This document shows positions 5,126-63,981 of a stretch of DNA of 64,000 nt, in pieces; within the stretch, counting starts at the first letter, position 1; the number at the start of each line of letters is the position of its first letter. Made by a program: the position numbers and the translations under genes. The notes under the pieces are model-generated. The model saw only the letters and a program-made list of their open reading frames with translations, ran no database searches and was not told where the DNA came from. The stretch is from assembly GCF_003334815.1 (NCBI RefSeq), contig NZ_QOWO01000002.1, one strand, 5' to 3'. The DNA comes from Escherichia coli. Lineage in GTDB: Bacteria; Pseudomonadota; Gammaproteobacteria; Enterobacterales; Enterobacteriaceae.

Positions 5126-5226
5126 AGCCTGATGCGCTACGCTTATCAGGCCTACGCAGTACCTGCAATATATTGAATCTGCAGGACTTTGTAGGCCGGA
5201 TAAGGCGTTAACGCCGCATCAGGCAT
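5126..5226. repeat. REP/BIME element (two inverted REP units with a central palindrome)
   Basis: gcctgatgcgctacgcttatcaggcctac and gtaggccggataaggcgttaacgccgcatcaggc are classic REP sequences; related copies occur at 47205-47302 and 48258-48344. Confidence 0.85.
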
Positions 5227-26149: not shown

Positions 26150-26180
26150 GGGGGAGAAAGCGTCTCCCCCTTCATGTTTA
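26150..26180 (+). terminator. rho-independent terminator of bssR
   Basis: Hairpin gggggaga-aagcg-tctccccc followed by a T-rich tract. Confidence 0.75.
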
Positions 26181-26252: not shown

Positions 26253-27368
26253 ATGCATCGACAATCCTTTTTCCTTGTGCCCCTTATTTGTCTTTCTTCC
26301 GCTCTCTGGGCGGCTCCTGCAACGGTAAATGTCGAAGTACTGCAAGACAAACTCGACCATCCCTGGGCACTGGCCTTTTTACCCGATAATCACGGTATGT
26401 TAATCACTCTGCGCGGCGGCGAGTTGCGTCACTGGCAAGCAGGAAAAGGATTATCTGCGCCGCTTTCCGGAGTTCCGGACGTTTGGGCGCACGGGCAGGG
26501 CGGCCTGCTGGACGTGGTTTTAGCGCCTGATTTTGCTCAGTCTCGCCGCATCTGGTTAAGTTATTCCGAAGTTGGCGATGATGGCAAAGCCGGAACTGCT
26601 GTGGGTTATGGCCGCTTAAGTGATGATCTCTCAAAAGTGACCGACTTCCGCACCGTCTTTCGCCAGATGCCAAAACTGTCTACCGGCAACCATTTTGGCG
26701 GGCGGCTGGTATTCGACGGTAAAGGTTATCTTTTTATTGCTCTGGGCGAAAACAATCAGCGCCCGACGGCGCAGGATCTGGATAAATTACAGGGCAAACT
26801 GGTGCGTCTGACCGACCAGGGCGAAATCCCGGATGATAATCCTTTTATAAAGGAATCCGGTGCGCGCGCCGAGATCTGGTCTTATGGCATTCGTAATCCG
26901 CAAGGAATGGCGATGAATCCGTGGAGTAATGCACTGTGGCTGAATGAACATGGCCCGCGCGGTGGTGATGAAATTAATATCCCGCAAAAAGGCAAAAACT
27001 ACGGCTGGCCGCTGGCAACCTGGGGAATCAACTATTCAGGCTTTAAGATACCGGAAGCGAAAGGGGAGATCGTCGCCGGGACCGAGCAACCTGTTTTTTA
27101 CTGGAAAGATTCGCCCGCTGTGAGCGGCATGGCCTTCTATAACAGCGATAAATTCCCCCAGTGGCAGCAAAAATTATTTATTGGCGCGCTGAAAGATAAA
27201 GATGTCATTGTGATGAGCGTCAACGGCGACAAAGTGACAGAAGATGGCCGTATTTTAACGGACAGAGGGCAGCGAATTCGTGATGTTCGCACTGGACCCG
27301 ACGGTTATTTATACGTTCTCACCGACGAGTCCAGTGGGGAATTACTTAAAGTTAGCCCACGCAATTAG
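26253..27368 (+). CDS. yliI: soluble aldose sugar dehydrogenase YliI (PQQ-dependent, beta-propeller), 371 aa
   Basis: Track ORF; signal peptide; length as recalled. Confidence 0.92.
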
Positions 27369-27991
27369 CTAACGGGAATCATCACCACTTTGCGCACTGC
27401 GGGGCGTTCAGTGAGTTGCTGATACCAGCGTTGCAGATTTGGACGCGGTGTCCAGGTCAGGCCAACGTTAAACAAATTGTAGATGAACGGTGCGATAGCG
27501 ATATCGCCCACACCAAACTCGTCGCCAGAGAACCATTTTACTTTTGCCAGTTCCGCATCGAGCAGGGCAAACAGGGCGTCGCACTCTTTGCAACTGGCAT
27601 CAATGGCGGCCTGATCGCGCTCTTCCGGTGGTGTTCTGACTAATCCCATCAGGATCCCGCGATGAGCATTACTGAGCGTCTGGTTTGCCCAGTCCATCCA
27701 TTTTTCCGCTTCCGCACGACGTGCCGGTGAGTCGATCCACAGGCGTTTTTGCCCGTACTGTGCCGCCAGATAGCGGACAATGGCGTTTGATTCCCAAAGA
27801 ATGAGATCACTTTCGTCGTCACGCAACAACGGCACCAGCCCGTTAGGGTTCATCGCCAGAAAATCAGCATCGTGATTTATCCCAAACTCACGGCCCGCGA
27901 GAATTTGCTCATAAGGTAGTTCCAGTTCTTCGAGCGTCAGCAATACTTTTTTTACGTTAGTTGAATTATTCCGACCCCACAGCGTAATCAT
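27365..27991 (-). CDS. gstB: glutathione S-transferase GstB (YliJ), 208 aa
   Basis: ATG at 27991 gives [15 protein letters not shown]; track ORF is 2 codons longer; stop overlaps the yliI stop. Confidence 0.92.
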
Positions 27992-28236
27992 ACTCACCCC
28001 TTTTCCGACAGGCAGCCACAGGCTGAACAGGACTCCGATGGTGAAGTAAAGTTAACTTTTAAGCAACAGCTGGCAAAAAAATGACACCAGAAGCAGCGAA
28101 GCGGCAGGATATTGCATAAACTTTAAAAACTTTACCAACTTACGGTTTCTTTAAGTTTGTGTGTGCGTTATTAATCACCAAACTTATCATACGGCGATAT
28201 AACGTATTTTTTTGAATGGATACTCGGGTGGCATTT

Positions 28237-47204: not shown

Positions 47205-47302
<98 letters not shown>

Positions 47303-48257: not shown

Positions 48258-48344
48258 GTAGGCCGGATAAGGCGTCCCCGCCGCATCCGGCACAGGCACC
48301 GTGCTGATGTCTGATGCGACGCTGGCGCGTCTTATCAGACCTAC
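48258..48344. repeat. REP/BIME element (two inverted REP units)
   Basis: gtaggccggataaggcgtccccgccgcatccggca and gatgcgacgctggcgcgtcttatcagacctac. Confidence 0.85.
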
Positions 48345-52101: not shown

Positions 52102-52425
52102 ATGCAATTTTCTACAACCCCAACTCTGGAAGGCCAGACCATCGTTGAATATTGCGGTGTGGTGACCGGCGAAGCGATTTTAGGTGCCAATATTTTCCGT
52201 GATTTCTTTGCCGGTATCCGCGATATCGTTGGCGGACGTTCCGGTGCGTATGAAAAAGAACTGCGTAAAGCACGGGAGATCGCCTTTGAGGAATTAGGCT
52301 CCCAGGCGCGGGCGCTGGGGGCCGATGCCGTCGTCGGTATTGATATCGACTACGAAACGGTCGGGCAAAACGGCAGTATGCTGATGGTTAGCGTCAGCGG
52401 TACGGCGGTGAAAACGCGTCGATGA
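52102..52425 (+). CDS. ybjQ: UPF0145-family protein YbjQ, 107 aa
   Basis: Track ORF; stop overlaps the amiD start (ATGA). Confidence 0.9.
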
Positions 52426-53252
52426 GAAGATTCTTCTGGCTGGTCGCTGCCGCTCTGTTATTGGCAGGGTGTGCAGGCGAAAAAGGCATTGTCGAGAAAG
52501 AGGGATATCAGCTTGATACCCGACGCCAGGCGCAGGCGGCGTATCCGCGCATTAAAGTGCTGGTGATCCACTACACCGCAGATGATTTTGATAGCTCGCT
52601 GGCGACACTGACCGATAAGCAGGTCAGCTCGCATTATCTGGTCCCTGCGGTACCACCGCGATACAACGGTAAACCGCGCATCTGGCAACTGGTGCCGGAA
52701 CAAGAACTGGCCTGGCATGCGGGGATTAGCGCCTGGCGCGGGGCAACGCGCCTTAACGACACCTCTATTGGCATTGAGCTGGAAAACCGTGGCTGGCAAA
52801 AATCGGCCGGAGTGAAATATTTTGCCCCGTTTGAACCGGCACAGATTCAGGCGCTTATTCCACTGGCGAAAGATATTATTGCCCGTTATCACATCAAGCC
52901 GGAAAACGTAGTGGCACATGCGGATATCGCACCGCAGCGCAAAGACGATCCGGGGCCATTATTTCCCTGGCAGCAACTGGCGCAGCAGGGGATTGGTGCC
53001 TGGCCGGATGCGCAGCGGGTTAACTTTTACCTTGCCGGGCGCGCGCCGCACACACCGGTAGATACCGCGTCATTGCTGGAGCTTTTGGCGCGCTACGGTT
53101 ATGACGTTAAACCTGATATGACACCGCGCGAGCAGCGGCGCGTGATTATGGCATTCCAGATGCATTTCCGCCCGACGTTATATAACGGCGAAGCGGATGC
53201 AGAAACTCAGGCGATTGCCGAAGCATTGCTGGAGAAATACGGGCAGGATTAG
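52422..53252 (+). CDS. amiD: N-acetylmuramoyl-L-alanine amidase AmiD (lipoprotein, zinc amidase_2 family), 276 aa
   Basis: Track ORF; lipobox LLAGC; length as recalled. Confidence 0.93.
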
Positions 53253-54262
53253 CGCGGCAGTTTTCCGTGGTCGCGTAGCCAGGCGGCAGTTTTCTCGATA
53301 CCTTCATCCAGGGTGATGACCGGCTGATAACCTAACTCTTCCTGCGCACGCGTAATATCCAGCGTAAAGTCAAAATTCAACTTGGAGACGCCGTAGTGGG
53401 TCAGCGGCGGCTCTTTTGCTGACTTGCGGCCTAAACGCTCCATGCTGCGGGCGATCATATCCAGCATCGGGTAGGGGACGGAACGAATACGACAGTCAAT
53501 ATTCAACTCGTCGATCAGCTTCTGCACGATGCTGCGCAGTGTGCGATGCTCGCCGTTGGTGATGTTGTACACACGCCCGGAAGGTAGCTTATCGCAGGCT
53601 TCCTGGCTTGCCAGCCACATTGCGTGCACGGCATTTTCATAGTAGGTCATATCGACCAGCGCACTGCCGCCATGCGGTAACAGAATACTGCCGTAGTGGT
53701 GCATCATATGCGCCAGACGGGGAATAAAGACTTTATCGTGCGGTCCGAACAGACTTTGTGGGCGCAGAATAGTAAAGCGCGTTTGTGGATTCGCCTGCGA
53801 AAGCATATTGATCACTTCTTCGCTGGCTGCTTTGCTGCGGGCAAACTCGTTGGCGAAGCGGTGAGGGCGAAAATCTTCTTTAATATCGCGATGGTGGTGA
53901 TAATCGAAGTACAGGGAGGGGGAAGAGATATGAATAAAGTTACGCACACCCCAGGCGACAGCCCATTCACCCAGGCGGCGAGTGGCGCGAACGTTAGCCA
54001 GATCGAAAGCCTGTTGTGTCCCCCAGGGTGAGGTAAAGCTGGAGCAGTGCCACAGCGTATCAATGCCCGCGAGCATCACTTTAGCTTGTGATGAAACCAG
54101 CTCGGTCAGATCCGCCGGAACAAACTCTGCGCCCATTTTTTCCAGCAATTTGCCCATTGCCTCGTTGCGACCGGTCGCTCGCACGCTGATGCCTTTCTGG
54201 CATAAAAACTCTACCGCGTTTCGACCTAAGCCGCTGGTGGCGCCGGTAACCAGTACCTTCAT
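53249..54262 (-). CDS. ybjS: NAD-dependent epimerase/dehydratase-family protein YbjS, 337 aa
   Basis: ATG at 54262 gives [20 protein letters not shown] (Rossmann GxxGxxG); track ORF starts 21 codons upstream. Confidence 0.9.
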
Positions 54263-54360
54263 ATCAATCCACTGTTGTTGAGAAAATAACGTGCGCATTC
54301 TTCCGTGATTTCCCCCATGATGCAATGGGAAACATGAAAGAATAACGCAGGTTTTGTCGA

Positions 54361-63556: not shown

Positions 63557-63981
63557 ATCCACCTCAATTAAAAATTGACCCTGTGAAAAATATGGTCGTT
63601 TTATAGGGTCGTCGTAAAAAAGTGACGACGGAAATAATGCGCGGCTATTTTAAAAACGAAGGCGAGTCATTCACCAGATAAATAAATCCAGTAAATTTGA
63701 TTTAGGGCAACAGCGGGTTGCCCCATATAGTCATTTGTCTGATTGACAGTGTAGTGCACGCAAAAGATTTAATCCTTTAGGCGTAATAAAAAATAATTTA
63801 TCATGCTAATTATTTGATTTTGTTGTTTTTGCAGACTTATCAGCAAGAGGGAGTATAACGCGATTATTCGCTCATTTTTCAGACATTTGCCATGCTTAAA
63901 TGTGATGTCATCACGTATTAGCAAGGCCTTTCCCGTTATACTGCCAGCGTAAAGGATAAGTCACATATTTCTGGAGGGGAT

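Follow-up and report, generated by a model that had tools for sequence, protein, structure and literature searches.

The window analysed here, i.e., the whole 64,000-nt stretch of Escherichia coli contig NZ_QOWO01000002.1, is E. coli K-12 DNA and differs from the corresponding part of E. coli MG1655 (NC_000913.3, 852490-916491) by three substitutions and two 1-bp deletions. It contains two convergent gene pairs, yliI/gstB and amiD/ybjS, whose members run into each other on a single TTAG tetramer (Table 1). At the first junction, the TAG stop of yliI occupies 27366-27368 on the plus strand, and the TAA stop of gstB occupies 27365-27367 on the minus strand, read as TTA on the plus strand. At the second, the TAG of amiD lies at 53250-53252 (+) and the TAA of ybjS at 53249-53251 (-). 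In both pairs, two bases (TA) are common to the stop codons and four are common to the annotated CDSs, and RefSeq places the same 4-nt CDS overlaps in MG1655. The initial annotation had proposed that each pair ends on TTAG, with TAG on the plus strand overlapping TAA on the minus strand; the sequence, the ORF list and RefSeq bore this out, and the coordinates of all four stops agree.

Table 1. Genes, shared tetramers and predicted transcript features at the two junctions (window coordinates unless stated otherwise).
Feature	Position	Strand	ORF list	MG1655 (RefSeq)	Basis or remark
yliI/gstB shared tetramer TTAG	27365-27368	both			Sequence reading, ORF list, RefSeq
amiD/ybjS shared tetramer TTAG	53249-53252	both			Sequence reading, ORF list, RefSeq
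yliI CDS, aldose sugar dehydrogenase, 371 aa	26253..27368	+	26253..27368	878742-879857	ORF list, annotation
gstB CDS, glutathione S-transferase, 208 aa	27365..27991	-	27365..27997	879854-880480	ORF list, annotation
amiD CDS, N-acetylmuramoyl-L-alanine amidase, 276 aa	52422..53252	+	52422..53252	904913-905743	ORF list, annotation
ybjS CDS, NAD-dependent epimerase/dehydratase family, 337 aa	53249..54262	-	53249..54325	905740-906753	ORF list, annotation
Predicted gstB 3' extension, antisense to yliI	26917..27364	-			Highest Rho score at window 26917, 448 nt past gstB stop
Predicted amiD 3' extension, antisense to ybjS	53253..53627	+			Rho region at window 53627, 375 nt past amiD stop
Predicted ybjS 3' extension, antisense to amiD	52598..53248	-			Rho region at window 52598, 651 nt past ybjS stop
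Stable hairpin in gstB 3' extension, 11+4 bp stem, no U tract	27290..27336	-			Folding

Working through the stop codons, we found that convergent genes cannot overlap by 1, 2 or 3 nt and can overlap by 4 nt only on YTAR, i.e., TTAG, TTAA, CTAG or CTAA. The 4-nt step in the lengths of convergent overlaps has been traced to the same four tetramers (Lillo and Krakauer, 2007; PMC2174442), and convergent overlaps have been attributed to 3' extension following loss of a stop codon (summarised in PMC2716372). Both pairs have the anatomy of the published 4-nt class, the shortest possible, and differ from it in nothing of kind: genes on opposite strands face each other with their 3' ends, bases 2-4 and 1-3 of the tetramer form the two stops, and the C-termini of orthologues are conserved across Enterobacteriaceae, as expected of real genes that extend up to the tetramer. 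What is added here to the published account is the lineage history of both junctions and a point concerning wobble positions. Base 1 of the tetramer is at once the third base of the minus-strand stop and the wobble base of the last sense codon of the plus-strand gene (AAT, Asn, in yliI; GAT, Asp, in amiD), while base 4 serves likewise as third base of the plus-strand stop and as wobble base of the last sense codon of the minus-strand gene (AGC, Ser, in gstB; CGC, Arg, in ybjS). Since the outer bases are wobble positions, they constrain neither protein, and the central TA alone is fixed by both genes. A change of TAG to TAA would be silent for the partner gene, and editing or recoding of the central TA would abolish both stops of a pair simultaneously; stop loss would add 17 codons to yliI, 19 to gstB, 24 to amiD and 13 to ybjS. 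The two pairs are thus a clean, textbook case of facing genes with common stop bases at zero coding cost, and they also exemplify mRNAs whose 3' ends must form within an adjacent gene.

Two further features of the immediate surroundings were observed. The start of amiD overlaps the stop of ybjQ on the same strand by 4 nt (52422-52425; ybjQ ORF, 52102-52425), so that amiD has 4 nt in common with a neighbour at each end. At the other junction, the TTAG of yliI/gstB is contained in a perfect 8-bp palindrome, TTAGCTAA (27365-27372), which holds stop codons in two frames per strand and originates from the ...AGC TAA of gstB read against the ...AAT TAG of yliI. The palindrome is probably incidental, since the sequences of other genera differ at this position.

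TTAG occurs 98 times in the window; the tetramer alone is therefore meaningless, and it is the coincidence of two real gene ends that counts. The convergent junctions of the window number 11 and are spaced by 58, 240, 75, 46, -4, 46, 40, 174, 29, 198 and -4 nt. Lillo and Krakauer (2007; PMC2174442) counted 58 convergent overlaps in E. coli and, among 58 prokaryotes, 1890 convergent overlaps of which 1218 were of at least 5 nt, leaving ~36% that are exactly 4 nt. From these counts we estimated a base rate of ~20 4-nt junctions among an assumed 700-800 convergent pairs genome-wide, which predicts ~0.3 such junctions among 11 and a probability of ~0.03 for two or more. The occurrence of two in one window is a modest coincidence at the local scale, and it was singled out post hoc.

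Both junctions hardly vary within E. coli. Of 5421 complete E. coli records, 5231 have exactly the same 61 nt around the first, and TTAG and the annotated overlap of 4 nt persist in all three variants of the second that were read (98.4, 96.7 and 91.8% identical). In Escherichia sp. MOD1-EC7003 (L006), yliI has been lost except for its last few codons and gstB faces bssR across a 74-nt spacer that holds the bssR terminator hairpin (GGGGGAGACGCCTTCTCCCCC). Some AmiD variants in databases are 297-301 aa long and extend at their C-termini into ybjS, as would be expected if the overlap were an artefact of annotation or sequencing in which one of the stops is not a real gene end. We give this explanation virtually no credence: the stops are unambiguous, over 5000 genomes have the same ends, other genera conserve the C-terminal residues, the 297-aa forms that were checked come from frameshift-filled assemblies, and the conservation of both frames up to the common tetramer refutes it.

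The 297-aa forms (L089-L091) were also considered as natural losses of the shared stop, and were rejected as such; their assemblies are rich in frameshifts (GGG to GG) and split both ybjS and ybjQ, and these forms are probably assembly errors. A 301-aa form (…GQDERGS…; TAG to GAG), found only in a few ENA/NCBI contigs, implies that the central T of TTAG has become G, by which both stops would be lost together.

To follow yliI/gstB across Enterobacteriaceae, gstB was scanned in one genome per species, giving 80 loci; yliI was the convergent neighbour in 57. Spacing was between -4 and +5 nt in 47 of these 57 species loci and larger in 10. The 4-nt overlap was present in six loci (Escherichia spp., S. 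enterica arizonae, C. koseri and one unclassified metagenome-derived Enterobacteriaceae genome), whereas the stops abutted at a spacing of 0 (e.g., TGATTA) in 21 (Enterobacter, Lelliottia, Trabulsiella and others) and were +1 to +5 nt apart in 20 (Klebsiella, the C. freundii group and others). Wider spacings of 8 to 68 nt were found in nine loci (a few Citrobacter and others), and one C. amalonaticus strain had a spacing of 1277 nt. Considering this spectrum, the overlap seen in E. coli is one of a continuous series of states in which the genes are packed end to end.

The same scan returned several other arrangements. In six loci from several genera (L010, L016, L044, L058, L073 and L079), the gene opposite gstB is not yliI but another one, encoding 337-353 aa, at a spacing of -8 to +39 nt and often with a hairpin in the 3' end of that gene. 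In a record titled Chryseobacterium sp. 18061 (L077), gstB and yliI form an Enterobacteriaceae-like pair (72 and 80% identity), pointing to contamination or a wrong label. GstB proteins of Halomonas/Vreelandella (L061, L062, L070, L074-L076, L080, L082 and L084) are ~70% identical to the E. coli protein, and yliI is not adjacent.

When AmiD was used as a protein query, nearly all matches were from E. coli and Citrobacter; a wider sample came from a scan of metagenome contigs for a degenerate DNA pattern, in which 62 loci were found. The 4-nt overlap was present in 36 of ~49 amiD/ybjS loci (32 from the pattern scan and four others), a proportion to be read as coming from a sample that is phylogenetically non-independent and biased by the search pattern; AmiD in these 36 loci is 70-97% identical to the E. 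coli protein. The tetramer was TTAA in 24, TTAG in nine and CTAG in three, with either TTAG or TTAA in Citrobacter. Although the outer bases toggle, the last codon of the partner was always synonymous (e.g., GAT/GAC for Asp and CGC/CGT for Arg), as predicted by a cost-free wobble arrangement.

In seven other loci the spacing was +1, +3 or +7 nt, and in eight, amiD and ybjS were separated by 45-147 nt containing palindromic elements. Five of these inserts (+48 nt in L128; +100 in L094 and L108; +105 in L098 and L134) lie between direct 7-9-bp copies of the junction sequence, (GG)TTAACGC, so that amiD and ybjS each retain their own stop and last codons, while the sister loci L140, L149, L150 and L088 have the uninterrupted GGTTAACGC. 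This looks like insertion of REP/BIME-type elements of 48-105 nt with target-site duplication, which would have resolved the overlap. The exact REP motif GCCTTATCCGGCCTAC, found at the REP sites of the window itself too, is present in the insert of L098; Rfam returned no match at the gathering threshold for the junction inserts of the related loci, and the identification as REP is based on the exact motif. The spacers of L110, L132 and L147 (45-147 nt) contain other palindromes, e.g., CCCCCTCTCCC...GAGAGGGGG hairpins and GCCGGGGGCGCTGCGCTTGCCCGGCCTAC. As judged from these comparisons, both junctions are old, and REP-type palindromes appear to have split the amiD/ybjS overlap secondarily in some lineages. 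Since such inserts are tolerated, there would seem to be no strict need for the overlap, and relatives with a REP-split junction provide natural controls for testing regulation by convergent overlap.

REP/BIME elements and bidirectional intrinsic terminators between convergent genes lie in the same kind of place, the 3'-3' junction, and in some of the relatives described above a REP-type palindrome sits exactly at amiD/ybjS. Unlike such junctions, however, both pairs of the window lack a spacer, a hairpin and a T tract. The window has REP/BIME elements of its own at 5148-5206, 47223-47281 and 48258-48341 (Rfam ES036 and naRNA4 matches, exact motif GCCTTATCCGGCCTAC), two of which fill its widest convergent spacers, ybiT/ybiU (240 nt) and rlmC/artJ (198 nt).

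Consensus scans and folding revealed no convincing intrinsic terminator near either TTAG. Neither junction has a G+C-rich hairpin bordered by A and T tracts between its stops, where the spacer is nil, and the only stems nearby are weak, 5-bp ones at 53270-53287 (+) and 27020-27003 (-). Matches of the terminator scan near the second junction were within the expectation from shuffled sequences; an excess near the first consisted mainly of repeat matches on the bssR-yliI hairpin (26150-26170). The initial annotation had stated that no terminator lies between the genes. This holds trivially, as there is no intergenic DNA, but not in the wider sense, as Rho-dependent terminators exist inside the partner genes. 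In MG1655, bicyclomycin-sensitive termination has been reported at 879406 (-), antisense to yliI, at 905089 (-), antisense to amiD, and at 906118 (+), antisense to ybjS, with Rho scores of 3.8, 3.9 and 4.3, respectively, all with significance below 1e-5 (Adams et al., 2021; PMC7815308, supplementary file 2). The positions, and with them the ends of the 3' extensions in Table 1, are coarse, the score being built on 800-nt comparison windows. The same file lists no Rho region for a yliI transcript entering gstB, and a search of the curated tables of Adams et al. by gene name and coordinate prefix gave no discrete Term-seq 3' ends near either junction. These junctions thus resemble the published cases in that coverage drops antisense to yliI, amiD and ybjS, as expected for Rho acting on untranslated or antisense RNA, and differ from them in lacking mapped discrete 3' ends and an entry for yliI into gstB. 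Rho regions also lie antisense behind at least six of the 11 convergent junctions of the window, including some with spacers of 40-240 nt (PMC7815308). Read-through into the facing gene is therefore locally normal and not special to the TTAG pairs. In composition, the extensions are moderately rut-like (Rho-loading) only: C:G exceeds 1 in many 80-nt windows of the gstB, ybjS and yliI extensions and is mostly at or below 1 in the amiD extension.

Folding of the gstB extension gave one stable hairpin, 28-74 nt past the gstB stop and inside the yliI CDS (z = -3.4; one of 200 shuffles folded as well). It could act as a protector of a processed gstB 3' end. The hairpin sits on the conserved GPDG...TDES codons, and the opposite strand folds equally well. 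Between 13 and 18 of its 18 pairs are kept in Escherichia, Citrobacter and Klebsiella and 7-11 of 18 in the Enterobacter group; pair conservation across genera gave no evidence of selection on the hairpin.

Rho-independent, hairpin-assisted bidirectional termination zones have been described between convergent E. coli genes and head-on encounters of RNA polymerases proposed as their cause on the basis of SEnd-seq (bioRxiv 10.1101/2022.10.23.513370), and termination at the TTAG pairs might likewise be driven by collision rather than by Rho. We regard this as very improbable here. The proposed mechanism uses a hairpin pause element at the overlap, and none spans either TTAG; three of the four transcripts show bicyclomycin-sensitive read-through (PMC7815308); and collisions require frequent transcription of both genes, which would be unlikely for genes as weakly expressed as these.

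Since an mRNA includes its own stop codon, each transcript of these pairs already covers 4 nt of its partner, and 3' overlap is obligatory whenever both are made. Of these genes, yliI is probably RpoS-dependent. Transcripts that end ahead of the partner gene, the outcome that the initial annotation had set against its suggestion of possible antisense 3' overlap or transcriptional interference, could only be non-stop mRNAs. The overlap part of the suggestion was supported: beyond the obligatory overlap, yliI-gstB and amiD-ybjS both appear among the 165 overlaps between convergent transcripts that ExcludonFinder reported for MG1655 in 50% or more of 58 RNA-seq samples (2025; PMC12288877, Table 1), so that overlap in vivo is documented for both pairs, and the Rho regions lie well past the junctions in yliI, amiD and ybjS (PMC7815308). 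Two other pairs of the window, fsaA-moeB and mdfA-ybjH, are on the same list, as is ybjD-ybjX, of which only the start of ybjD is inside the window (PMC12288877).

The listing raises the question of whether the pairs are functional convergent excludons, in which the spacer-free state is selected and transcription of one gene represses the other through collision and/or RNase III. Like convergent excludons, both pairs are opposite-strand neighbours with overlapping transcripts, excludon pairs are reported to have higher synteny (PMC12288877), and the spacing of at most 5 nt at both junctions in most of the sampled Enterobacteriaceae could reflect selection for transcript overlap. Excludons, however, are defined by mutually exclusive expression (interference or RNase III), and here the transcript overlap is a trivial consequence of CDSs that already overlap. 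Listing is almost automatic for overlapping CDSs, since any two fully transcribed mRNAs qualify, and capture of double-stranded RNA with p19 was not feasible for convergent excludons, which consequently went without this validation in the source paper (PMC12288877). Moreover, the spacing of yliI/gstB drifts from -4 to +5 nt, natural REP or palindrome inserts of 45-147 nt occur at amiD/ybjS, and yliI has been deleted in one Escherichia lineage (L006). Our search found no expression data showing anticorrelation of the partners. We know of no functional link between the partners of either pair. Considering these points together, repression between the partners seems unlikely. That selection keeps the spacing near zero and that obligatory antisense 3' overlap couples expression, making the pairs true conserved excludons, we likewise hold to be quite unlikely; in the final weighing, the long-kept near-zero spacing was the one observation that spoke for selected coupling. 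If such coupling were true, the lineages with REP insertions would be natural 'uncoupled' mutants.

We consider it probable, with good confidence, that both pairs represent a neutral, cost-free packing state of the 4-nt YTAR class, with Rho-dependent termination inside the partner gene. Tight packing of the genome would yield the minimal overlap as a by-product, the reverse complement of TAA or TAG (TTA or CTA) providing, with a shift of one base, the TA of an opposite-strand stop, and the wobble position of the outer bases would make the overlap cheap and stable. With zero intergenic room, each mRNA would run untranslated into the coding region of its partner, where it would be halted, mainly by Rho, within a few hundred nucleotides; where both genes are transcribed, complementary 3' ends would result. 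The anatomy of the junctions, their conservation, the published transcript overlap and, for three of the four transcripts, the published sensitivity to Rho are established. We infer that the origin of the overlaps was neutral and that they have no selected regulatory role. The phenomenon, its tetramers and both specific pairs are already in the literature, and we concur with the initial annotation that the arrangement is a curiosity rather than a system.

The differences between the window and MG1655 lie elsewhere. A 1-bp deletion at 38232-38233 (GGGCAACCC to GGGCACCC) frameshifts codon 11 of grxA (~38006-38262, minus strand) and abolishes the CPYC active site; the 161 nt around this site match the window exactly in only one of ~5400 complete E. 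coli genomes, and the deletion reflects either faulty sequencing in the source, a lesion specific to the strain or a change that was introduced. Upstream of dacC, in the intergenic region between it and gstB, a T8 run of MG1655 is T7 (28206-28213). The three substitutions are G to A at 2395 in ldtB, A to C at ~43058 in potG and, 8 nt upstream of the start codon of aqpZ, A to T at 63564.
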